Source of the DNA: an uncultured Acidobacteriota bacterium
GTDB lineage: Bacteria > Acidobacteriota > Vicinamibacteria > Vicinamibacterales > UBA2999
NCBI GenBank assembly: GCA_963734635.1
Contig: CAVTIA010000014.1
Span: 720,192-784,191, forward strand
Length of the DNA stretch: 64,000 bases
Reading direction: 5' to 3'
In this document: positions 7,544 to 63,625 of the stretch, one piece after another
Position numbering within the stretch: position 1 is the stretch's first letter
Layout: every line of letters starts with the position of its first letter
Translations under genes and position numbers: made by a program
Notes under the pieces: generated by a model
Told to the model about the DNA's origin: nothing
The model's input: the letters and a program-made list of their open reading frames with translations, nothing else
The model's database searches: none

Positions 7544-7578
7544 GTCCGCGCGCAGGCTGAAGCCTGCGCGCTACGGAC
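7544..7578. repeat. REP-like hairpin GTCCGCGCGCAGGCTGAAGCCTGCGCGCTACGGAC
   Basis: Long GC stem around a CTGAAG loop. Related copies at 9200, 29324 and 29454. Confidence 0.7.
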
Positions 7579-7586
7579 AAAAATTT

Positions 7587-7613
7587 CCTCCGTGTCTCTG
7601 TGTCTCCGTGGCC
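7587..7613. repeat. word-repeat tract (GTGTCTC[CT]GTG words)
   Basis: CCTCCGTGTCTCTGTGTCTCCGTGGCC. The same words occur at 14756..14777, and in reverse complement at 46536..46561. Confidence 0.6.
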
Positions 7614-9114: not shown

Positions 9115-9224
9115 TTGGCCGCGCACGCTGAAGCGTGCGCTCTACGATTGCCGTTAACTGTTGGCCGCGCACGCTGAAGCGTGCGCTCTACGATTGCCCG
9201 TAGCGCGCAGGCTTCAGCCTGCGC
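9115..9224. repeat. array of three REP-like hairpins (two 38-nt copies at 46-bp spacing plus a GTAGCGCGCAGGCTTCAGCCTGCGC hairpin)
   Basis: TTGGCCGCGCACGCTGAAGCGTGCGCTCTACGATTGCC occurs at 9115..9152 and again at 9161..9198; third hairpin at 9200..9224. Confidence 0.75.
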
Positions 9225-9227
9225 AAT

Positions 9228-10931
9228 CTAATAGCTAAACACATATACCGCACCCGAGTCGTCCGCGGAGTTGTCGGCCTGATTGCCACCGATGCCTTTC
9301 GATGAGCCATCCTCGTTGTGCGCGCCGACCGCCATGATTCTGCCGTCGGTGCTCAGTGCCACGGCGCTTCCGAACTCGTCGCCCGCCTCCGTGTTGGACC
9401 CCTTCACGTAAGCTCGCTGTGTCCAGGTCGCCCCGCTCCGCGTGTAGAAATACACCGCACCCGATTCCTCCGCCTGCTTGCGCTGCTCGCGCCACGGATC
9501 GAGATGGTCGACGATGAGGAAGGGTTGCGGTTCCGGTGCACGGACGCCCTGGGCCGCATTGTCCTCGAGGTACGCGGTTACGGCGAGCGTGTTGCCGTCG
9601 CCGCTCAGTGCGAGCTTCACACCGAACGAGTTGTACGGACGAGGATTGTTGGCCTTGATGAACGCCTGCTCGGTCCACGTCGTCCCGGATCGCACGAAGA
9701 CGTACGCCGCTCCTACCCAGATGTTTGCAGCGCCGCGAGGTGGTGAATCGTTGTCGCACCCTGGAGGATTGATGCCGGGCGTCAGGCAATCCTCATCACC
9801 GGCGCCCGCCGCTACCGTGTTCCCGTCGTCGCTGATCGCGACGACGTATCCGAGCTGATCGGTGGCTTCGGTGCGGGATCCTTTGATGTATGCCTGCTGC
9901 CTCCATGCGCCATCACTGCGCGCGAACACGTACAACGCGCCGGCGCCGCCAGCGGTGTTGTCGCGCGGACCGTTGATGGTTCGTCCAGAGCCCCGTTCGT
10001 CGAACGCGCTGGTCACGAGCGTGTGGCCGTCAAAGCTCAGAGCTACCGCAAACCCGAGCATATCGCCGGCCTGAAGGTGCGAGCCCTTGAGGTACGCCTG
10101 CTGCGTCCACGAGGCGCCCATCCGGTTGAATACGTACACCGCCCCGGCGGACTGCTGCGAATCGTCGCGCTCGTTGCCGTTTACCTGCTGCGCCGCACCG
10201 TCTTCCGAGATTGCGCCCACGGCGAGTGTGTTGCCGTCGCCGCTCAGCGCCAATGAATAGCCGAACTGATCGCCGTCGCCGGGCACTTCGCCTTCTCCGG
10301 CCCTTCCGGTGTTCGAGGCTTTGATGTACGCCTGTTGCGTCCACGTGCTTCCCGCGCGACTGAAGACGTATACAGCGCCTGCCTGGCGGAGCGAGTTGTC
10401 GTTCTGATCGCCGTTGATTCCGGTTGCCGCGCTCGATTCCCAGGGCGCAGCGACAGCCAGGGTGTTGCCATCCCGGCTCAAGGCCACCGAGGCGCCAAAG
10501 TGATCGCTCTGGTCCGCATTCGAAGCCTTGATATACGCCTGTTGCACCCAGGAGCTGCCCTGGCGGGCGAACATGTACACAGCGCCGGATGCGTAGGCTG
10601 AATTGTCGTTCTGGTTTCCGTTGACGCCTGTCGAGCCACTGCTTTCGTACGGCGCGCCGACAACCATCGTGCTGCCGTCGCCGCTCAGGGCAATCGAATT
10701 GCCATTGTGACCCTGGTTGCCGCCGCCGTCGGCGAAGTAGTCGTAGGCCTCCGCGTTCGATGCCTTGATGTAGGCAGTCTGTTTCAGGGGCAGTAAGGGT
10801 GTCGCGGTTCGCACCTGCGATGATAGATGCCCTTCCGCGACAAGGATGATAGCCAAGGCGATGGCGTGGTGAATGTATCGTTCACGCTTCTGGGTTCTCC
10901 GTTCTCCGTTCGTGTTCAGGTTCGGTTCCAT
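9228..10931 (-). CDS. FG-GAP/integrin-like repeat beta-propeller protein, secreted
   Basis: About 8 repeats of W.QQAYIKASN...D.FG.SVALS.DGNT.AVGA..E.S..G.NGNQ.DNS...GAVYVF. The start is uncertain: the first in-frame ATG (10931) lies inside the palindromic element. Confidence 0.75.
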   Translation of the reverse strand: MEPNLNTNGERRTQKRERYIHHAIALAIILVAEGHLSSQVRTATPLLPLKQTAYIKASNAEAYDYFADGGGNQGHNGNSIALSGDGSTMVVGAPYESSGSTGVNGNQNDNSAYASGAVYMFARQGSSWVQQAYIKASNADQSDHFGASVALSRDGNTLAVAAPWESSAATGINGDQNDNSLRQAGAVYVFSRAGSTWTQQAYIKASNTGRAGEGEVPGDGDQFGYSLALSGDGNTLAVGAISEDGAAQQVNGNERDDSQQSAGAVYVFNRMGASWTQQAYLKGSHLQAGDMLGFAVALSFDGHTLVTSAFDERGSGRTINGPRDNTAGGAGALYVFARSDGAWRQQAYIKGSRTEATDQLGYVVAISDDGNTVAAGAGDEDCLTPGINPPGCDNDSPPRGAANIWVGAAYVFVRSGTTWTEQAFIKANNPRPYNSFGVKLALSGDGNTLAVTAYLEDNAAQGVRAPEPQPFLIVDHLDPWREQRKQAEESGAVYFYTRSGATWTQRAYVKGSNTEAGDEFGSAVALSTDGRIMAVGAHNEDGSSKGIGGNQADNSADDSGAVYVFSY

Positions 10932-11051
10932 GTTCGGGGTTCGAGGTTCGGCGTTCGAGGTTCGCCCCATGAACATGGAACGTTGGAACCTTGAACCCAC
11001 AACCGAACGTGAACACGAACAGAGAAATGTCAGAACCGAGAAGCGTGAACG
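10879..11051. repeat. ORF-less hairpin copy (173 bp) of the 37667..38357 element
   Basis: Termini CGTTCACGCTTCTGGGTTCTC... and ...GAACCGAGAAGCGTGAACG are reverse complements and match the termini of the ORF-bearing element. Confidence 0.7.
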
Positions 11052-11066
11052 ACGCATCATTTGACG

Positions 11067-14644: not shown

Positions 14645-14701
14645 TTCAGGAAAGTGTGAGGAGCGCCATTATGGTCAACCGGCGAAAGATCGGTCAATTC
14701 A

Positions 14702-14777
14702 GGTTGTAGGTGGTAGTCGGTAGGTGGTAGTCAGGGTGGCCCGGGCGTTTGACCCGTGTCTCCGTGTCTCCGTGGCC
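14702..14777. repeat. composite word-repeat tract (GGTAGGT/GGTAGTC words, then GTGTCTCCGTG words)
   Basis: GGTTGTAGGTGGTAGTCGGTAGGTGGTAGTC ... GTGTCTCCGTGTCTCCGTGGCC. The word types are shared with 42279..42370 and 7587..7613. Confidence 0.6.
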
Positions 14778-18724: not shown

Positions 18725-18837
18725 CGTTCACACTTCTGTGTTCTCCATTCTCTGTTCGTGTTCACGTTCGGTTCGAAGTTCGAGGCGCGGTCGAACCTGA
18801 ACACGAACCGAGAAGTGAGAACCAGGAAGCGTGAACG
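18725..18837. repeat. ORF-less hairpin copy (113 bp) of the 37667..38357 element
   Basis: The left arm CGTTCACACTTCTGTGTTCTCCATTCTCTGTTCGTGTTCACGTTCG and the reverse complement of the right arm agree at most positions by eye. Confidence 0.75.
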
Positions 18838-27792: not shown

Positions 27793-27829
27793 GAGCGTTC
27801 GGATCGTTCGAACGTTCGGGCGTTCGGAG
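27793..27829. repeat. CGTTCG word-repeat tract upstream of 27836
   Basis: GAGCGTTCGGATCGTTCGAACGTTCGGGCGTTCGGAG, with a central palindrome CGTTCGAACG. Confidence 0.5.
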
Positions 27830-29327: not shown

Positions 29328-29349
29328 CGCGCAGGCTTTAGCCTGCGCG
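29324..29349. repeat. REP-like hairpin GTAGCGCGCAGGCTTTAGCCTGCGCG
   Basis: GC stem around a CTTTAG loop; same family as 7544 and 9200. Confidence 0.7.
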
Positions 29350-29421
29350 GGATCCCTTACGTGGGGCGGGTGCCGCCAAGCGGCGTAATACCACGCGAGG
29401 CGGACCCGCCGGAGATACACA

Positions 29422-30495
29422 ATGTCGAAAATCCGAATCGCCGTCCTTATGCCCGCGCAAGCTAAAGCTTGCGCGCTACTGGTCGCTTTGCTTGCGGTGC
29501 TCCCACTAGCACACCTGTCTGCCCAACAGCGCGGCCGTGGCGCCGGCGGCCGGGGCAATGCACCCGAGTTTCCGACCGACCTGCAGTGGTCGAGCAACGC
29601 CGAAACGCAGCGGCGTGTGGCGACGGCAATGAAAATTGCCGGTTCGGATCTGGTTCCACAGGCCAAGATGTTCTGCACCGCGACGGGTCCGCAGCGCATG
29701 GCGGTGGCGAGACAAGCGGCCGGTCTGCCGCCCATGCCGAACGTCGTGGTCGAGCCAACCCGCGTGTTCGACAACATGTGGTGGATCGGCATGACGTCCC
29801 AGAACGTCTGGGCGATCACGACCAGTGAAGGCATCATCCTGCTCGACACGATGAACAGCTCGGATGAAGCGCGCGATGTGATTGTCGCGAGCATGAAAAA
29901 GGTGGGCCTCGATCCGGCGCAGATCAAGTACATCGTCATCGGTCACGGTCATCCGGGACAGTCGGATCACACCGGCGGCGCGCTGCATCTGCAGAAGACG
30001 TACGGCGCCAAGGTGGTGATGAGCCCGATCGATGCCAAGCTCGTGTTGCCGACGCAGCGTGCCGATCGTCCGCTCGCGGTGCCCGACATCGACGCCGTTC
30101 ACGGGCAGAAGCTCACGCTGGGCGACACGACGCTGACCTTGGCTCATATTCCGGGCCATACGCCCGGCACAATGGGGGTGATTGTGCCGGTGAAGCTGCG
30201 AGGCGCCTCGCATTCCGTGATCGTGCTGGCGGCCACGCAGATGCCCACGCGCGAGTCGCTGATCCAGTTCGAGAAGGTCTTCACCGAGTTTGCGAAGCCG
30301 ATGAAGGTGGAGGCCTCACTCAACATGCATGCGAACGGCGTGCAGAACGACCTCGAGTTCCTGGAGCAGATCCGCAAGAACCCGAACGGTCCGAACCCGT
30401 ATCTCTACGGACCCGAGCGCTTCAGCCGGTGGATGGACATCATGATCGAGTGCGGCAGGGGACGGCTGGCGGCACTGGGAGTGAGCACGAACTGA
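29422..30495 (+). CDS. secreted MBL-fold metallohydrolase
   Basis: IILLDTMNS...IVIGHGHPGQSDHTGG (HxHxxxDH). The start may be ATG 29422 or ATG 29449. Codons 11-19 are encoded by a REP-like hairpin (29454..29479). Confidence 0.7.
   Translation: MSKIRIAVLMPAQAKACALLVALLAVLPLAHLSAQQRGRGAGGRGNAPEFPTDLQWSSNAETQRRVATAMKIAGSDLVPQAKMFCTATGPQRMAVARQAAGLPPMPNVVVEPTRVFDNMWWIGMTSQNVWAITTSEGIILLDTMNSSDEARDVIVASMKKVGLDPAQIKYIVIGHGHPGQSDHTGGALHLQKTYGAKVVMSPIDAKLVLPTQRADRPLAVPDIDAVHGQKLTLGDTTLTLAHIPGHTPGTMGVIVPVKLRGASHSVIVLAATQMPTRESLIQFEKVFTEFAKPMKVEASLNMHANGVQNDLEFLEQIRKNPNGPNPYLYGPERFSRWMDIMIECGRGRLAALGVSTN
29454..29479. repeat. REP-like hairpin CGCGCAAGCTAAAGCTTGCGCGCTAC inside the 5' end of a CDS
   Basis: Perfect stem GCGCAAGC/GCTTGCGC with a TAAA centre, translated as PAQAKACAL. 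Confidence 0.6.
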
Positions 30496-30502
30496 TCCTC
30501 GT

Positions 30503-30550
30503 CGTTCACACTTCTGGGTTCTCGGGTTCTCTTGGGCGTCTGCGTTCTTC
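30503..30550. repeat. solo left arm of the 37667..38357 element family
   Basis: CGTTCACACTTCTGGGTTCTCGGGTTCTC... with no matching right arm; lies between two convergent genes. Confidence 0.55.
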
Positions 30551-34155: not shown

Positions 34156-34440
34156 ATGAGCCAATCATGCCGTCTCGCATTTCTGGTTTGCCTGTGTCTC
34201 GTCGGGACACTTGGCTCAGTCGCCTGAAAGCACCCTCGCATTGTTTGGTGTCTCCGTCGTCCCCATGAACTCGATGCGATGTACTCGGTCGTAAGCGACG
34301 CGACTGAACATCTCGCCGGATGGGAAACGGTTCTCAGCCGTCACGGAACGCGCCCCAAGTGAACAGCCGCACATCATTGTCGTGCACACCTGGTTCGAGG
34401 AGTCGAAGCGTCTGTGCGCGAGAACTGAGAACCTGTCGTT
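34156..34440 (+). pseudogene. gene debris: signal peptide, amidohydrolase-like N-terminal fragment and a PD40-protein C-terminal tag in three different frames
   Basis: GGGAGG-ATG 34156 gives MSQSCRLAFLVCLCLVGTLGSVA then a stop. Other frames read AQSPESTLALFGVSVVPMNS and QPHIIVVHTWFEESKRL (compare IVLNFFDELRRRVP at the end of 31433..34099). Confidence 0.4.
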
Positions 34441-34464
34441 CACACGTGTGAACTGAGAACGCGT

Positions 34465-34645
34465 CGTTCACACTTCTCGGTTCTGCGTTCTCAGTTCCTG
34501 TTCACGTTCGGTTCGGTCCGGTCCGGCGAAGCCGAACACTACGAACTGCCGGTCGCACGCGCACCTGAACAAGCGAACTCAGAACGCGAACTCTGAACCG
34601 AACCTGAAGCACGAACCGAGCACCGGGAACGTAGAAGTGTGAACG
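34465..34645. repeat. ORF-less hairpin copy (181 bp) of the 37667..38357 element
   Basis: Termini CGTTCACACTTCTCGGTTCTGCGTTCTCAG... and ...GGAACGTAGAAGTGTGAACG. An extra partial terminus CGTTCACACGTGTGAAC lies at 34437..34453. Confidence 0.7.
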
Positions 34646-36978: not shown

Positions 36979-37673
36979 CCGACACCCCAGGCGGTCAGGA
37001 TTAGCTCCGGATCCTGCGCGTCGCGCTCGATCTTCCGGCGCAGCCTGCTGATGACCGTGTCCACGGTGCGTTCGGTCACGTAGGTGTCGTCGCTCCAGAC
37101 GTTCTGGAGCAGCGCTGCCCGGCTGAAGACGATCCCTGGCCTGCGGGCGAGCTGATACAGGAGGTCGAACTCCTGGCGGGTCAACTCGATCGGGGCGCCG
37201 CGTACGATCGCTTCGCGCCGCTCCGGGTCGAGCTGCACGTTCGCGGCCGACGTGCGCTTCCGCGCCGGGGCCGGGCTGTCGTCGTCACGGGCGTGCCGCC
37301 GTGTGATGGCGTTGACGCGTGCGATGAGCTCGCGGATGCCGAAGGGCTTGGTGAGGTAGTCGTCTGCACCGCTTTCGAGCCCCAACACCTTGTCAGATTC
37401 CGTGTCGCGCGCGGTCAGCATCAGGATTGGGGTGCTGACGTTCGGTCCGCCCGTCCGGATCGCGCGGCACAGCGAGACTCCGTCCAGGCCCGGCAGCATG
37501 ACGTCGAGAATCACGAGGTTGTACGCGCTCTCGCGAAGGCGGCGCAGCGCCTCGCGACCGTCGGCGGACTCTTCGACTTCGAACCCGGCGAGCTCGAGGT
37601 GCAGGCGCAGCAGATCACGTACGGGAAGCTCGTCCTCGACGACGAGGGCGCGGCGCGAAAAGCCGTCGTTCAC
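36954..37673 (-). CDS. OmpR-family response regulator
   Basis: ALVVEDE...ILDVMLPGLDG receiver domain plus winged helix TVDTVISRLRRKIE...TAWGVGYKF. The GTG start lies within the element terminus. Confidence 0.9.
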   Translation of the reverse strand: MNDGFSRRALVVEDELPVRDLLRLHLELAGFEVEESADGREALRRLRESAYNLVILDVMLPGLDGVSLCRAIRTGGPNVSTPILMLTARDTESDKVLGLESGADDYLTKPFGIRELIARVNAITRRHARDDDSPAPARKRTSAANVQLDPERREAIVRGAPIELTRQEFDLLYQLARRPGIVFSRAALLQNVWSDDTYVTERTVDTVISRLRRKIERDAQDPELILTAWGVGYKFVDVE

Positions 37674-38357
37674 ACTTCTCAGCTTCTCCGTTCTCAGTTC
37701 GTGTTCACGTTCAGTTCCGGCGTTCAGAGTTCACCTTTCCGAGGTTCGACGTTCTTGCACCTGCATTCGCGCAAGCCGTGCAAATTCTGCGTACCTGACC
37801 CGAATAGGCGAGCAATCATGGCCTGAAGACCTTGGCACTCGGCGTGCTCCGTTGCGCACCATGGGCGTACACCGATTCACGGAACTACGCGCCTGGCAGG
37901 CCTGCAACGTTTACAAGAATGCAGTCTATCGACTCTGCGAGCAAGGATCGCTCTCGACAGACTGGAAGCGTCGAGGACAGCTCGAAGATTCGGTATCTGG
38001 TCCACCCGGACACATCGCCGAAGGGTTCGGCAGATTCAACCCGGCCGACTTTGCACGCTTCGCCGTAATCGCGCGGTCGTCGCTCATGGAATCGCAGAAT
38101 CATCTGCGAGACGCGGTCGATAAGGGCTACATCACCGAAGACATTCGCCTCGAACACGACAAGCTTGCCGAGGCCGCTCTCGAGGAGGTCACCGGACTGC
38201 TGGAGTACCTTCAGTCTCCCGAGGCGCTGCGAAACGCTCGCCGCGCCCGTGAACGCCGCATCGCGTCAAGATCCGAACGCCGAACCAAGAACCCGAACAA
38301 CGAACCAGAACCGAACCTGAACACGAACCGAGAAGCGAGAACCGAGAAGAGTGAACG
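37667..38357. mobile_element. 691-bp element bounded by about 50-nt imperfect inverted repeats and carrying a four-helix-bundle (23S-IVS-type) gene
   Basis: The left arm starts CGTTCACACTTCTC and the right arm ends GAGAAGAGTGAACG. The arms are reverse complements, and the same termini bound ORF-less copies at 10879, 18725 and 34465. Confidence 0.6.
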
Positions 38358-38361
38358 ATAG
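37861..38361 (+). CDS. four-helix-bundle protein (23S rRNA intervening-sequence protein family)
   Basis: FTELRAWQACNVYKNAVYRL...GHIAEGFGRFNPADFARFAVIARSSLMESQNHLRDA is typical of the family. The last ~35 codons are arm-encoded low complexity. Confidence 0.75.
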   Translation: MGVHRFTELRAWQACNVYKNAVYRLCEQGSLSTDWKRRGQLEDSVSGPPGHIAEGFGRFNPADFARFAVIARSSLMESQNHLRDAVDKGYITEDIRLEHDKLAEAALEEVTGLLEYLQSPEALRNARRARERRIASRSERRTKNPNNEPEPNLNTNREARTEKSER

Positions 38362-40670: not shown

Positions 40671-40715
40671 AGTCAGTAAGTCAAAAGTCAAAAGTCAGAA
40701 GTGAAAAGTTAAAGG
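40671..40715. repeat. AAAGTC word-repeat tract
   Basis: AGTCAGTAAGTCAAAAGTCAAAAGTCAGAAGTGAAAAGTTAAAGG, about 7-nt period, unusually AT-rich for this DNA. Confidence 0.5.
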
Positions 40716-42273: not shown

Positions 42274-42278
42274 AAGAA

Positions 42279-42370
42279 GTAGGCAGTAGGCGGTAGGCGG
42301 TAGCGTAGGCAGTCGACGGTAGCGTTTCTGCCACGGACTACGAACTACGACCTACCACCTACCGACTAAC
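42279..42370. repeat. GGTAGGC word-repeat palindrome
   Basis: Left GTAGGCAGTAGGCGGTAGGCGGTAGCGTAGGCAG; right CTACGAACTACGACCTACCACCTACCGACTAACC is its approximate reverse complement. Confidence 0.6.
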
Positions 42371-44545: not shown

Positions 44546-44645
44546 CGTGGCTCCCTCCTGCCTGTTTATCCGCCTCCGCCAGCGTCGGGGAAGTCGGGCG
44601 ATCCGCGATTTTATCCCTAAACCGGTTTCATCACTCACTCACGCA

Positions 44646-44689
44646 CCCCAGGCACCTCTAGGCGCCCCAGGCACTTCAGGCACCTAACC
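44646..44689. repeat. AGGCACC word-repeat tract
   Basis: CCCCAGGCACCTCTAGGCGCCCCAGGCACTTCAGGCACCTAACC; the same words occur at 47246..47283. Confidence 0.55.
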
Positions 44690-46535: not shown

Positions 46536-46561
46536 GGCCACAGAATCACAGAGACACAGAG
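46536..46561. repeat. word-repeat tract, reverse complement of the GTGTCTC words
   Basis: GGCCACAGAATCACAGAGACACAGAG. Confidence 0.55.
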
Positions 46562-46603
46562 CGAACGTTGCCCTGTATCTCGGGGCTTCTGCGGCCCGTA
46601 CAT

Positions 46604-47245: not shown

Positions 47246-47283
47246 GTGCCTGAGCACTCAGGCACCTTAGGCGCCTAGGCACC
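47246..47283. repeat. AGGCACC word-repeat tract
   Basis: GTGCCTGAGCACTCAGGCACCTTAGGCGCCTAGGCACC; overlaps the annotated 3' end of 47267..48448. Confidence 0.55.
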
Positions 47284-48448
47284 TTGTAGCGTTAATACGG
47301 CTTCGGCGGTCCCGGTCCGCGTATCGCGTCGCGTCGATCGTCACGTTCGCCTGCACGTCGCTCAACTCGAAGTTCGACCGTCCGTCGAGCCAGGTCATCG
47401 TCCATTTGAACGGAAGCTTGACGCCAGCCACGTCGCGGAAATCAGAGTAGTCCATCTGAACCGGCAGACGTCCCACCGGAGAAGGGGTCGACCGGACGAC
47501 GCGTGTCAGCAGGCCTGTTTCTTCATCGAAGTACAGCGTCACGAGCGCGGCACCTTTGTTTCCTTGAACCGCCAGCACCGTCCGGTCGTTGATGAAATCG
47601 CTGCTGGAACGCGTGTTCGTCAACGCCCCTTTGATGTTGGCGGGAAACATCAGCTCTGCGTCGGCTCTGGCCGAGTCGAGCTCTGCACCATGTAGCTCCA
47701 TGACCGCAACAGGCTTGAACGGTGCCGAAACCCAGCTGGCTGTTCCACTGAAGATGGTCGTATTGTCGCCTGCTTCCTTGTCGCGGACGATCACGGCTCT
47801 CTGATTCGGCGCCTTCGCGTAGATTTCCACCGGGCGCGGGAAGCCTTCGGGCCCGTAGCCGGAATAGGTTCCCTTCGCCGTGTAGCTGGTGAGCTTCGCG
47901 ACACGATCCGCACCTCCGACCGCCTGCAGGTACTTGTCGAGGATCTGGGCTGCCGTTGGCGTCCCCGGGGGTCCCGGTGCCAGCATCACGTCGAGCTCGT
48001 CGAGCTGTGGCGTGCCATAGAGCATCACGAGACTCGGGGTGACTTTGGGCCGGTTGCTGCCGCGGTGGCAGGAGAAGCAGGTCACAACCTGACGTCCGCC
48101 GAAGTACTGCTTGTTGATTTCGGTCATGATCGTGACCATGCGGCGGGCCGTCTGCTTCCGCGGGCTGACGTCCTTGGCGTAATTCGCCCAGTCGTTGGAT
48201 GACGCGGTGTGGCAGTCCTCGCATGAGAACCCGAGCGCTGCCGAAAACACGCCCATCGTTCCCATGAACTCGTCCACCGGGATGCCGCGAAGCACAGTGA
48301 CGTTCTTGAACACGTTTTCCGCCAACAGCTGGCTCTGTGCCGCCGGTTGAACGGAGCCGGCCTGACCGCTGACGAACGCCACGGCCGTCGCCCACACGAC
48401 AGCCGTGCCCACGGCACTCCAGACAATCTGTCTCGATCCAAACCTCAT
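47267..48448 (-). CDS. secreted c-type cytochrome (reaction-centre cytochrome-c-subunit-like N-domain) with an additional C-terminal domain
   Basis: VFKNVTVLRGIPVDEFMGTMGVFSAALGFSCEDCH and VVTCFSCHRG. The last ~20 codons (RDRRSRINATRCLGA) look non-native; an alternative frame ends ...GPGPPKPY at TAA 47292, so the 3' end is uncertain. Confidence 0.7.
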   Translation of the reverse strand: MRFGSRQIVWSAVGTAVVWATAVAFVSGQAGSVQPAAQSQLLAENVFKNVTVLRGIPVDEFMGTMGVFSAALGFSCEDCHTASSNDWANYAKDVSPRKQTARRMVTIMTEINKQYFGGRQVVTCFSCHRGSNRPKVTPSLVMLYGTPQLDELDVMLAPGPPGTPTAAQILDKYLQAVGGADRVAKLTSYTAKGTYSGYGPEGFPRPVEIYAKAPNQRAVIVRDKEAGDNTTIFSGTASWVSAPFKPVAVMELHGAELDSARADAELMFPANIKGALTNTRSSSDFINDRTVLAVQGNKGAALVTLYFDEETGLLTRVVRSTPSPVGRLPVQMDYSDFRDVAGVKLPFKWTMTWLDGRSNFELSDVQANVTIDATRYADRDRRSRINATRCLGA

Positions 48449-53204: not shown

Positions 53205-53263
53205 GAAAGTGGAAAGTGCAAAGTACAAACTTTTCAATTTGCACTTTGCACCTTGTACTTCTC
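53205..53263. repeat. GCAAAGT word-repeat palindrome
   Basis: GAAAGTGGAAAGTGCAAAGTACAAACTTTTCAATTTGCACTTTGCACCTTGTACTTCTC; the arms are self-complementary. Confidence 0.6.
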
Positions 53264-56214: not shown

Positions 56215-57288
56215 TTACGACGATGTGATACGAAGCAGCTTGATCAAGTTCCCGCCAAGAATCGCTTCCTTGTCCGCATTGCTCAGCCAGGACGCATTGA
56301 GGACGAGATCCACGGTGACCGGCCAGTTCAGCGGGTTGTCCGTGCCGTAGACGATCTGGCTCACGCCCAGCTCGTTCACGAGGTGCTTCAGCCCCTCGTC
56401 CGAGAAGACCATCGTGTCGACAAGGATCTGCGATCGCAGATACTCCCTCGGCTTCTTTTTGTTGGCACAGTTGGCGTTGTTCCGAACCTCGCACGCCACG
56501 TCGGTGCGCATGACATACGACGGCAGGTATCCGCCGGCGTGCGCTGCACCCACCTTGAGGTTGGGATGCCGGTCGAAGACGCCGTCGAAGATCAGCCGCG
56601 TCAGGAAATACGTCGTCTCGAGCGGGTTGCCGATGATGTTGCCGAGATCGCCGCGACCCTCAAGGGCGTCTTCCTTGATGATGTTCTCGGCGCCGCCCGG
56701 GTGCATAAACACTACGACACCGAGCTCCGCGGCTTTGGCCCAGAACGGATCGAACTTGGGCAGTGAGAGATCCTCGCCGTTCACGTGACCGCCGATTGCT
56801 GCGGCACGCAAACCGAGACGCTTGACACCGTCCTCGAGCTGCTGTGCAGCCAGATCGGGGAACTGCAGCGACGACGACGCCATCGCGACGAAGCGATCCG
56901 GATACTGCGCCACGAATTTCGAGAGGCCCTCGTTCTGCGCTCGAACGATGCGATTGGCCAGGTCGCGATCCTTGACCTCCCACCACCAGAAGCCGTTGAT
57001 GCTGAGCACCTGGACGTCGATGCCCTGTTTGTCGATGAGTGCGATGCGGTCGGGACCGAGCGGACGCCCGCCACCCTGCTTGGCCCACTCCGTGCCCTTC
57101 ACAACAGGATCGACTTCGGGCACTGTCGCGTGGGCATGAATATCGACGACGCGCACGCGGCGGCCACCGATGCTCACCTGCCGGCGAGTCGCAGGTGCTT
57201 GTACTGCGGCAACGTCACCGCGCCCGAACGCGTACATCCCTGCCGCAGCTCCCGCAACGGTCTTGAAGAAATGTCTGCGATTGGACAT
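56215..57288 (-). CDS. Tat-exported amidohydrolase_2-family protein (copy 1 of 3)
   Basis: MSNRRHFFKTVAGAAAG twin-arginine signal; RVVDIHAH metal motif; colinear with the next two genes. Confidence 0.75.
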   Translation of the reverse strand: MSNRRHFFKTVAGAAAGMYAFGRGDVAAVQAPATRRQVSIGGRRVRVVDIHAHATVPEVDPVVKGTEWAKQGGGRPLGPDRIALIDKQGIDVQVLSINGFWWWEVKDRDLANRIVRAQNEGLSKFVAQYPDRFVAMASSSLQFPDLAAQQLEDGVKRLGLRAAAIGGHVNGEDLSLPKFDPFWAKAAELGVVVFMHPGGAENIIKEDALEGRGDLGNIIGNPLETTYFLTRLIFDGVFDRHPNLKVGAAHAGGYLPSYVMRTDVACEVRNNANCANKKKPREYLRSQILVDTMVFSDEGLKHLVNELGVSQIVYGTDNPLNWPVTVDLVLNASWLSNADKEAILGGNLIKLLRITSS

Positions 57289-57302
57289 ATGAGAACCTCG
57301 TT

Positions 57303-57372
57303 CTGGTCTTTAGTCTCTGGTCTCTGGTCTTTAGTGACCAAAGACGAAAGACCAAAGACGAAGACCAAAGAC
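57303..57372. repeat. GGTCTTTAG/GACCAAAGAC word-repeat palindrome
   Basis: CTGGTCTTTAGTCTCTGGTCTCTGGTCTTTAGT followed directly by GACCAAAGACGAAAGACCAAAGACGAAGACCAAAGAC. Confidence 0.65.
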
Positions 57373-57377
57373 ATTGT

Positions 57378-58445
57378 TTATGACGTAATCCGCAACAACT
57401 TCATGAGATTGCCGCCGAGAATCTGTTCCTTCTCCGCGTTGGTGAGTGTCTTGTCGTTGATCACGTAATCAACATTGACCGGCCATCCGAACGGGATGTC
57501 GGTGCCAAAGACGATTTGGCCGGTACCCATCTCGGCAACCAGATGCCGCAGGCCGTCCTCGGTGAACACCATCGTGTCGGCGAGAATCTGCGACCGCATG
57601 TACTCGCTCGGTTTCTTCTTGATGATGCACTTCTGGTTCGGCCGCCCGCACGCGACTTCCGTTCGTCCGAGGTACGACGGCAAGTAACCGCCCCCGTGCG
57701 CGCCGCACACGCGCAACGCGGGAAACTTGTCGAACGTGCCGTCGAAGATCAACCGCGACAGGAAGACCGTCGTTTCGAGTGGGTTGCCGACGATGTTCCC
57801 CAGGCCGCCGGCTCCGGCAAGCGCGCCGTCCTTGAGGAGATTCTCGGAGCCGTTCGGATGCATGAAGACGAGCTGCCCCATCTCGGCGGCCTTCGCCCAG
57901 AACGGATCGAACTTCGGCAGCGACAGGCTCTCGCCGTTGACGTGGCCGCCAACGGTCACGCCACGCGCGCCGTACTTCGTCACCGCCTCTTGCAGCATCT
58001 CCGCGGCAAGATCGGGAAACTGCAGCGGAATGGATGCCATGCCGACGATCCGGTCGGGATGCATCCGGTTCCATTTCGCGAGCGTCTCGTTGTGATAGCT
58101 GCAGATGGCGCGCGCCAGGCCGCGATCCTTCGCTTCCCACCACCAGAAGTCGTTGACGCTGACCGCTGCAATGTCGATCCCCAGCTTGTCGAGGACCGGG
58201 ATGCGGTCGTCGAGACTCGGCCCTTTCATGTACTCCTCGAAGGGAGTCCCTTTGACAATTTCGGCCGGGATCGGCATGTCCCAGTGGTTGTGCACGTCGA
58301 TCACGCGCACGCGACGACCGCCGATCGTGATCTGACGGCGCGCGGGCGCCTGCATTGCGGATGTGCGCGTGAAGCCGCGTCCCGCGGCGTACATCGCCAC
58401 AGTCGCGCCCGCGATCGTCTTGCAGAACTGTCTGCGATTTGGCAT
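57378..58445 (-). CDS. Tat-exported amidohydrolase_2-family protein (copy 2 of 3)
   Basis: ATG 58445 gives MPNRRQFCKTIAGATVA; RVIDVHNH. The 20 extra N-terminal codons in the track ORF (YVVSAFRRT) are REP-encoded. Confidence 0.75.
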   Translation of the reverse strand: MPNRRQFCKTIAGATVAMYAAGRGFTRTSAMQAPARRQITIGGRRVRVIDVHNHWDMPIPAEIVKGTPFEEYMKGPSLDDRIPVLDKLGIDIAAVSVNDFWWWEAKDRGLARAICSYHNETLAKWNRMHPDRIVGMASIPLQFPDLAAEMLQEAVTKYGARGVTVGGHVNGESLSLPKFDPFWAKAAEMGQLVFMHPNGSENLLKDGALAGAGGLGNIVGNPLETTVFLSRLIFDGTFDKFPALRVCGAHGGGYLPSYLGRTEVACGRPNQKCIIKKKPSEYMRSQILADTMVFTEDGLRHLVAEMGTGQIVFGTDIPFGWPVNVDYVINDKTLTNAEKEQILGGNLMKLLRITS

Positions 58446-58455
58446 ATCAGCTCCG

Positions 58456-58535
58456 GTCCGCCTGAAGGCGGACACTACGTACGTCGCGTAGGGCTTGGCG
58501 GACACTACGTACGTAGCGTCCGGCTTTAGCCGGAC
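58456..58535. repeat. REP-like hairpins (GTCCGCCTGAAGGCGGACACTACGTAC ... GGCGGACACTACGTACGTAGCGTCCGGCTTTAGCCGGAC)
   Basis: Same family as 2421..2482 and 49660..49718. Confidence 0.7.
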
Positions 58536-62074: not shown

Positions 62075-62087
62075 GTTGGGGATTTCA

Positions 62088-62188
62088 GGCTTCGGGCTTT
62101 AGGCTGTAGGCTTTGGGCTTCGTCTGGTTGTCACCTCGCGCTTCACGCGGGTCGCACGCCGAGAGCCAAGCGCCTAAAGCCCAGAGCC
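62088..62188. repeat. GGCTTT/AAAGCC word-repeat palindrome
   Basis: Left GGCTTCGGGCTTTAGGCTGTAGGCTTTGGGCTTCG; right GCCGAGAGCCAAGCGCCTAAAGCCCAGAGCC. Confidence 0.6.
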
Positions 62189-63503: not shown

Positions 63504-63513
63504 GGCGACGGAT

Positions 63514-63625
63514 CGTCTTTAGTCTTTCGTCTTTGGTCTTTGGTGGGGCCCGGCAAAGCGCCGGGCCCCTTGTTTTTTCCGATCCATGGGCGAGACTAAG
63601 GACCACAGACCAAGGACCAGAGACC
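63514..63625. repeat. GTCTTTGG/CCAAGGAC word-repeat palindrome enclosing a terminator
   Basis: Left arm CGTCTTTAGTCTTTCGTCTTTGGTCTTTGGT (63514..63544); right arm GAGACTAAGGACCACAGACCAAGGACCAGAGACC (63592..63625). Confidence 0.6.
63545..63578 (+). terminator. rho-independent terminator
   Basis: Perfect 10-bp stem GGGGCCCGGC / GCCGGGCCCC with a 5-nt loop, followed by TTGTTTTTT, 42 nt after the stop of 62217..63503. Confidence 0.8.

Follow-up and report, generated by a model that had tools for sequence, protein, structure and literature searches.

Hairpins with tandem-heptamer arms of many words in intergenic spacers of a soil Vicinamibacterales genome

The intergenic hairpin at positions 57303–57372 (minus strand) of the window, the whole 64-kb stretch of DNA that was analysed, belongs to a kind of repeat that is already known from the STRR of cyanobacteria and the GGGAATC array pairs of Xanthomonas. 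What is new is that this heptamer-repeat kind is found in a further phylum, in soil Acidobacteriota (Vicinamibacterales), and in a form with many different words. We read the hairpin as one of a broad class of intergenic array-armed stem-loops, without a gene of its own, and as a REP- or MITE-like occupant of its spacer that is constrained as a transcript; we give this reading a probability of about one half. The most interesting by-product of the analysis is the nesting, across phyla, of four-helix-bundle (4HB) genes in stems that are built from heptamer arrays.

A hairpin between two amidohydrolase cistrons

The hairpin, with the word GTCTTTG/CAAAGAC, was characterized by its sequence, RNA folding and strain comparison. 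It occupies an 89-nt spacer between two Amidohydro_2 cistrons, both on the minus strand, and the spacer is bordered by the stop codon of gene 57378–58505 (−) and the ATG at 57288 of gene 56215–57288 (−). Arm 1 (57303–57333) is composed of GGTCTTT AGTCTCT GGTCTCT GGTCTTT and arm 2 (57336–57372) of GACCAAA GACGAAA GACCAAA GACGAA GACCAAA GAC, i.e. four GGTCTNT units opposite five GACSAAA units with a loop of 3–4 nt; the tract in full is ggtctttagtctctggtctctggtctttagt gacc aaagacgaaagaccaaagacgaagaccaaagac. TRF detected two period-7 arrays at the site, 57302–57330 (4.1 copies) and 57336–57372 (5.4 copies), and the repeat finder paired both as inverted arms. The mRNA-sense (minus-strand) RNA folds into a stem of ∼30 bp with an energy of −41.7 kcal/mol (z −6.3; 0 of 200 shuffles as good), and the plus-strand RNA reaches −33.4 kcal/mol (z −3.8). 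The first-pass annotation of this DNA had described a word-repeat palindrome here, and the site is exactly as it stated.

Head-to-tail 7-nt units, in excess of the two to three copies at which repeats count as STRR-like, are present at the site, and its two complementary arrays lie close together on opposite strands, as in the convergent pairs of Xanthomonas. The arms are also inverted repeats of the type that terminates MITEs. The GTCTTTG/GGTCTCT sequence contains no run of three or more G and hence no G-quadruplex signature. No ORF is located in the loop, and the only 4HB gene within a stem in the window is that of the element at 37667–38361. The word hairpins have only the word in common, with no shared consensus palindrome of the REP type.

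A stable stem directly after a stop codon recalls a transcription terminator or attenuator, and one word hairpin, at 63513–63625, does enclose a canonical intrinsic terminator with a T run (63545–63569) between its arms. It is nevertheless very improbable that the hairpins serve this purpose, as this nested terminator is the sole site with a strong stem in a terminator scan of the window. The GTCTTTG stem is followed by AGAACGAGGUUCUCAU with no U-tract and is located between cistrons of a conserved three-gene operon, and a hairpin between carA and carB in related species likewise separates cistrons.

In Xanthomonas, 70 to 75 convergent pairs of GGGAATC arrays per genome are able to form stem-loops, and the same spacers are occupied in related species, with variable length (Rehm et al. 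2015, PMC4692102). Common to both systems are intergenic tandem heptamers, mostly of ∼4 units, a large share of convergent arrays, and location between the same gene pairs in related species with extensive variation in length and sequence. Xanthomonas has one dominant word per genome, which is read as G-quadruplex-forming, whereas the present genome has many words, most of which, including GTCTTTG, have no G-runs. STRR are intergenic tandem heptamers of cyanobacteria, according to a passage in PMC4692102. They resemble the arrays of the window in comprising several heptamer words per genome, in their intergenic location and in their variable copy number, but they come from another phylum and are described as direct arrays rather than paired arms, whereas about one third of the present set is paired and some of its units are 8–9 nt long. 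Cyanobacterial STRR were reportedly presented by Mazel et al. in 1990 as short tandemly repeated repetitive heptanucleotides. The first-pass annotation knew of no named class for such tracts; tandem heptamers had in fact been named, as STRR and as GGGAATC arrays (PMC4692102).

Further tandem heptamers have been described in Beggiatoaceae (TAACTGA; PMC4679880) and Geobacter metallireducens (the GGACCGG and MTYCTGA sets; PMC2700814). These consist of 2–6 units, mostly just 5′ of start codons, but they are nearly all direct and use one or two words, with one indirect repeat in Cand. Maribeggiatoa BOGUAY. A survey of 7006 genomes ranked tandem heptamers first in abundance among the intergenic periodic repeats of prokaryotes and saw 'no clear clue' as to what they do (PMC6344855).

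Word arrays across the window

The 8.3 kb of intergenic DNA in the window contain 10 period-7 arrays, compared with 0.5 in dinucleotide shuffles (∼20-fold), and five period-8 arrays, compared with 0.2. When relatives are included (75 kb of intergenic DNA), 80 period-7 arrays stand against 5.6 in shuffles, and the intergenic density is ∼11 times the genic one, with the intergenic/genic split of window and relatives based on rough gene calls from codon statistics. A reverse-complement partner within 200 nt (score ≥24) was found for 53 of the 151 intergenic arrays, so about one third have a complementary arm nearby; the same search gave 0 partners in the reversed-sequence control and 11 in the complement-only control. 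The dyad symmetry that had been noticed from the letters is thus above chance, and the shuffles together with the two partner controls rule out a chance origin of the arrays. The usual arm consists of 4–5 units of 7 nt, and some arms have units of 8–9 nt. Array length also peaks at 4–5 units, a soft peak because TRF under-detects imperfect arrays of 2–3 units. The stems begin 0–20 nt past a stop codon and finish 0–30 nt before the next start.

Seven of the 13 tracts that had been listed as palindromes are indeed hairpins, one of them decayed and one small, and the other six are solo arrays. Besides the GTCTTTG hairpin, the full-sized hairpins are located at 63513–63625 (+), of the same word family (four GTCTTTN units, then four to five AGACCNN units), at 62087–62188 (+), with the word GGCTTTR/YAAAGCC, a spacer of ∼35 nt and a fold z of −3.0, at 42278–42368 (−), with GGTAGGY/RCCTACC (partner search and folding), and at 53205–53260 (−), with inverted arrays of AAGTGCA/TGCACTT. 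The tract at 46536–46596 (unstranded) is a decayed hairpin of the 8-nt family CACRGAGN, of which relatives have full copies, and at 47246–47284 (−) folding revealed a small hairpin, GTGCCTGAG/CTCAGGCAC, with an AGGCRCCT array after it.

No partner arm was found within 3 kb of the six solo arrays, which were defined by TRF. These are a period-9 array of AGGCACCNN at 44643–44684 (−), five units of AAAGTCA at 40671–40713 (−), a word that also occurs in a relative (L027), four units of CGTTCGGN at 27795–27827 (+), 5′ of a start codon, four units of GGTAGGT/GGTAGTC at 14701–14732 (unstranded), and two solo right half-arms of the CACGGAGA family (both unstranded), one at 14754–14777 with 2.6 copies of CCGTGTCT and then GGCC, and the other at 7588–7612, adjoining a REP-like hairpin. 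The word of the array at 27795–27827 builds a 136-nt hairpin in another relative (L171). At least eight unrelated words occur within one 64-kb window that holds a single 4HB gene, and nothing anywhere in the window matches Rfam at gathering score.

A second family of intergenic palindromes is present at 7548–7571, 9119–9226, 2421–2482, 29328–29350, 29455–29480 and 58456–58535. Its members have an 8–9-bp GC-rich stem and a loop of CTGAAG, CTTCAG, TTTAG or CTAAAG, often with GCTACG(TAC) after it, and they look REP-like; the palindrome at 58467–58526 is a tandem duplication with a period of 30. These REP-like hairpins (GCGCAGGCTGAAGCCTGCGC type) form a family separate from the word hairpins. Two relatives contain array hairpins of 220–290 nt (L005 17388–17608 and 19849–20139, L024 13560–13818) with energies of −150 to −195 kcal/mol and 8–9-nt words that include GGTGCGAG and AACGGAG. 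Their size is near that at which long DNA palindromes are usually unstable.

The arrays also cause wrongly extended ORF calls. The longest form of ORF 9228–11060 (−) runs through a gene-less hairpin at 10879–11051, so a mechanical choice of start would over-extend the protein; the real start of this gene is probably downstream of the hairpin.

Turnover of the hairpins and signature in the transcript

The window was compared with two strain contigs of 97–99% identity. The strains differ from it by one 7-nt unit at the GTCTTTG hairpin, the strain copy of the hairpin at 53205 has one 7-nt unit fewer, and a strain copy of the hairpin at 63514 (L001) has a left arm of GGCTTTN instead of GTCTTTN and a different inner hairpin. 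Within the species, no case of presence/absence was found in the 18 kb that were comparable.

Between species, turnover of the spacer contents is extensive. The three-gene amidohydrolase operon is kept in relatives, and its orthologous gap holds a 122-nt GGCTYTG/CRGAGCC hairpin at 96% protein identity (L167), only a C-rich half array at 86% (L168), a GGGAGTT hairpin at 84% (L169), a REP-like pair at 81% (L170) and, at 79% (L171), 15 nt with only a Shine-Dalgarno sequence. Both arms thus switched word together in one gap, from GTCTTTG/CAAAGAC in the window to GGCTYTG/CRGAGCC in the closest of these relatives. The neighbouring spacers of the relatives vary likewise, with words known from the window (GCAGTAG, CGTTCGG, GGTAGCN and GGCTTTG). 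The carA–carB spacer contains a hairpin in five species, with the word drifting on both arms (CACAGAGN in L004, CACGGAGA in L015, and CACGAAGGN in L007, L011 and L025); a sixth species (L012) has nothing in this spacer, and a seventh (L027) has a solo GCAGTRG array. One site is filled in L009 and empty in L006 and L020, and the filled copy has an apparent ATA duplication that is too short to be judged as a target-site duplication. No transposase, no clear target-site duplication and no other mobilising trace was found.

In L007 (15883 and 19240) and L011 (16024 and 19381), a hairpin stands on either side of carB and the words of the two are related (CACGAAGG, CACAAAGA), so an ordinary gene can also land between two array hairpins.

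Since the contents of orthologous gaps range from another word or half an array to a REP-like element or no element at all, we conclude from these sequence comparisons that the word hairpins are dispensable, fast-turning occupants of spacers, as REPs and MITEs are, that they are interchangeable with REP-like elements, and that the hairpin is not a fixed part of operon control. They also change in place, through unit slippage and concerted change of both arms. The likeness to REP/BIME elements lies in short transcribed intergenic palindromes that fill spacers after stop codons, with presence varying between relatives, and the two kinds alternate in the same orthologous gaps (L170); in REPs, however, the consensus stem is fixed and there is a RAYT partner, whereas the arms described here are tandem arrays of variable words. 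With MITEs, the hairpins share terminal inverted repeats, small size and presence that varies at orthologous sites between species, and in the GTTC family described below the gene-less copies outnumber the gene-bearing one. Unlike in MITEs, there is no transposase-bearing parent; the only gene-bearing relative encodes a 4HB protein of TIGR02436. The first-pass annotation had also offered a host-generated structured motif as an explanation. Unit slippage between strains agrees with this, but unrelated words, REP-like elements or nothing in orthologous gaps are a poor fit with a fixed host regulatory motif.

The GTCTTTG hairpin is located within the transcribed spacer of an operon, and G:U pairs make its sense RNA the more stable of the two strands. 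Of the hairpins flanked by genes that run in one direction, 13 fold better as mRNA-sense RNA and three fold worse, with 57 G:U pairs in the sense strand versus 39 in the other. The G-richer arm is the 5′ arm in 15 of 17 orphan hairpins (p 0.002), although the skew at the GTCTTTG site is marginal (+1 versus 0, one base) and the window's own GTTC element breaks this rule by the same measure. Solo arrays follow no G-first rule and have no orientation bias (24 versus 26). The G:U pairing and the G-richer 5′ arm point to a constraint on the transcript, or to mutation coupled to it; the G:U asymmetry could reflect transcription-coupled C-to-T mutation rather than selection.

How the hairpins spread and how they affect expression we infer as follows. 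They may move as whole units, or through ectopic conversion from copy to copy, in the manner of REPs and MITEs, and they would be tolerated owing to the self-contained stem that the transcript forms right after the stop codon. The C-rich arm, made second, would pair at once, so that a Rho loading site would not be exposed, and the long duplex would be a plausible RNase III substrate or barrier to 3′ exonucleases, comparable with 23S rRNA intervening sequences. Replication slippage would give the arms their array character, and selection or template-switch correction would preserve the pairing between them.

Slippage might also account for everything without any mobility. The tracts would then be host-generated simple-sequence repeats, with slippage favouring 7-nt units in relaxed spacers, intramolecular template switching making the inverted pairs and the 4HB genes unrelated to them, being located in repeat-prone spacers by coincidence; polymerase slippage that favours 7-nt units was proposed by Mrazek in 2007, as quoted in PMC4692102. 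Whole-unit indels between strains, the spread in array copy number, the solo arrays without orientation bias and the presence of GTCTTT arrays in contigs of 27 to 69% GC are all in agreement with such an origin. We nonetheless consider it rather unlikely, given that different species draw on the same limited set of words at sites that are not orthologous and that gaps switch between unrelated words, REP-like elements and empty states at 79–96% protein identity. Furthermore, CACGGAG copies, like GTTC copies, carry conserved position-specific termini, and complementary arrays enclose 4HB genes far more often than control genes.

Four-helix-bundle genes between complementary arrays

The single 4HB gene of the window is carried by the GTTC-type element at 37667–38361 (+), which consists of a left arm (37667 to ∼37760), the 4HB ORF (37861–38361) and a right arm (∼38262–38357) through which the ORF runs to its stop. 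The ORF has a match to TIGR02436 'four helix bundle protein' (E 1.5e-13) and another to Xcc0516, a structure from Xanthomonas (PDB 2gsc; E 4.6e-6), and the duplex of the arms has an energy of −85.9 kcal/mol. The GTTC/GAAC arms share the build of the word hairpins, as the first-pass annotation had pointed out. All 26 fetched homologues from Vicinamibacterales sit between GTTC/GAAC arrays with a conserved terminus; the element is built from a fixed terminus of ∼50 nt with GTTC-type heptamers, a variable GGTTCGN run and the mirror image downstream.

The window element is antisense to both flanking genes. A conserved leader at 37760–37860, between the left arm and the 4HB start, contains the motif GCARNNNCTGCGTAC, which is also found in homologues; it could be the element's own promoter or operator. 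The homologues (128–221 aa) have low-complexity C-terminal tails of very unequal length, and the tail is probably a by-product of array length.

Gene-less GTTC-type hairpins (all unstranded) are located at 10879–11051 (MITE-like, identified by the shared terminus and folding), 18725–18837 (shared terminus and inverted arms) and 34465–34645 (shared terminus), and a solo left terminus, also unstranded, was recognized by the same shared terminus at 30503–30548. A 16-nt palindrome at 34438–34453, just before the third hairpin, is a fusion of both element termini. The ∼50-nt terminus of the gene-bearing element is common to five gene-less or partial copies in the window and shows that these derive from the 4HB element. 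No target-site duplication was found around the four GTTC copies. The first-pass annotation had proposed that all word palindromes are relatives or footprints of the 4HB element. This is correct for the GTTC word. For the other words, direct descent is at most possible, with indirect support from the common build, the G-richer 5′ arm in most cases, the complementary arrays around 4HB genes of three other phyla and the metagenomic 4HB gene with the GTCTTT/AAAGAC word described below. The idea that each word has a local 4HB gene of its own found no support: neither the window nor 540 kb of related Vicinamibacterales DNA, with its dozens of non-GTTC hairpins, yielded a further 4HB gene, intact or decayed, and searching for homologues of the window protein brought up nothing but close relatives of the GTTC type, with no other words. 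Because no Vicinamibacterales 4HB gene with a non-GTTC word was found, the kinship of the GTCTTTG hairpin with 4HB elements rests on its architecture and on a low-GC metagenomic contig.

This contig (L076; 39% GC, another lineage) has a 4HB gene among GTCTTT/AAAGAC arrays, i.e. arrays of the same word. It came from a metagenome scan for GTCTTTNGTCTTTNGTCTTT, which yielded 80 loci with 27–69% GC; a 4HB gene abuts the array in two of them, L076 (E 1.9e-39) and L079 (a weak match). In the L076 region 2071–2710, the 4HB gene is located outside the loop, between two near-identical complete GTCTTT/AAAGAC hairpins. A segment of this contig, TAGAATGTNCTTACTAAAGACTAAC...AAAGACTTAWTTAA, occurs twice, once ahead of the 4HB ATG and once ahead of the ATG of the next gene, which looks like a duplication made on insertion.

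In other phyla, association of 4HB genes with complementary arrays is also apparent. Both fetched 4HB genes of Bacteroidota have GTTTGAG upstream and CTCAAAC downstream. A tblastn search of plasmids gave matches in cyanobacteria only; arrays abut the start and stop of the 4HB gene in nine of the 11 regions that were read, and eight of these nine are inverted, with eight words (TCAGGAG, GGGAAAA, GGAGATA, GGTGACA, GTAGGGA, GGGTGTA, GGGAACA and AAAAGCT). In Xanthomonas, the accB–accC spacer contains the XCC0516-type gene, enclosed by a GGGAATC array and the complementary one (L037–L040). These arrays are the repeats described by Rehm et al. (PMC4692102), who draw no link to 4HB genes. For 15 of 17 4HB genes from outside Vicinamibacterales, the complementarity between upstream and downstream flanks lies above the 95th percentile of 397 control genes. 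Sequence comparison shows that arrays of lineage-specific words enclose TIGR02436 4HB genes in four phyla. No paper that links the 4HB gene family with heptamer repeats was found in a literature search, which is not proof that none exists. The window and its relatives also allow a gap-by-gap comparison of many-word arrays.

Could the arrays be operators that are read by a multimeric protein? In such an arrangement, a pentameric 4HB protein, or one of the Csp, S1 or CsrA type, would bind one 7-nt unit per subunit, and the hairpin would control how the neighbouring cistron is translated or how stable it is. Both Xcc0516 and Avd form pentamers, and the arrays peak at 4–5 units; the most frequent length is four units in Xanthomonas (PMC4692102) and four or five units in Geobacter (PMC2700814). 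In addition, many arrays stop a few nucleotides short of a start codon, 4HB genes abut arrays, a partner that binds heptamers has been suggested for Nostoc (bioRxiv 10.1101/2022.06.06.494920), and there are candidate repeat-binding proteins in Beggiatoaceae (PMC4679880). This role is quite unlikely all the same: at least eight unrelated words next to one 4HB gene in 64 kb would call for many specificities or a sequence-blind reader, the element is absent from the orthologous gap of a relative with the same operon, and the length peak is the soft one noted above.

A wider, tentative possibility, which we regard as doubtful, is that heptamer-array stem-loops are the cis-acting arms of unrecognised, phylum-spanning selfish cassettes with a TIGR02436/PF05635 (Avd-like) 4HB protein as their cargo. 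The orphan arrays and hairpins (STRR, GGGAATC pairs and the words of the window) would then be their gene-less progeny or landing sites. One possible form of such a cassette would have a pentameric protein that reads 7 nt per subunit and host RNase III that frees the cassette from the operon transcript. If this were true, the 7-nt periodicity and the function of the 4HB family would belong to a single system; proteins of PF05635/TIGR02436 occur widely and their structures have been solved, with no function assigned outside diversity-generating retroelements.

According to a passage in PMC3936711 that cites Ralph and McClelland (1993), intervening sequences of 23S rRNA carry a PF05635/TIGR02436 ORF. 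There, too, inverted flanks form a long stem whose loop contains a gene of this family, as in the window, but the host is rRNA rather than an mRNA spacer. Excision of rRNA intervening sequences by RNase III is established.

Spacers of operons with essential or defence functions contain some of the 4HB genes: besides accB–accC of Xanthomonas, the cyanobacterial plasmids have the orders cas6/4HB/cas4 and cas10/4HB/cmr3 (L034, L036 and L163). PF05635 genes inside cas loci have been noted and interpreted as associated functions (PMC3936711), and the published 'CRISPR association' of 23S_rRNA_IVP genes may instead reflect insertion into operon spacers. Finally, a contig labelled Acidimicrobiia (L017) contains a GTTC 4HB element of the Vicinamibacterales type (71% identity) and, in addition, three AAATCAC arrays within 8 kb, which may be a case of a binning error or transfer.
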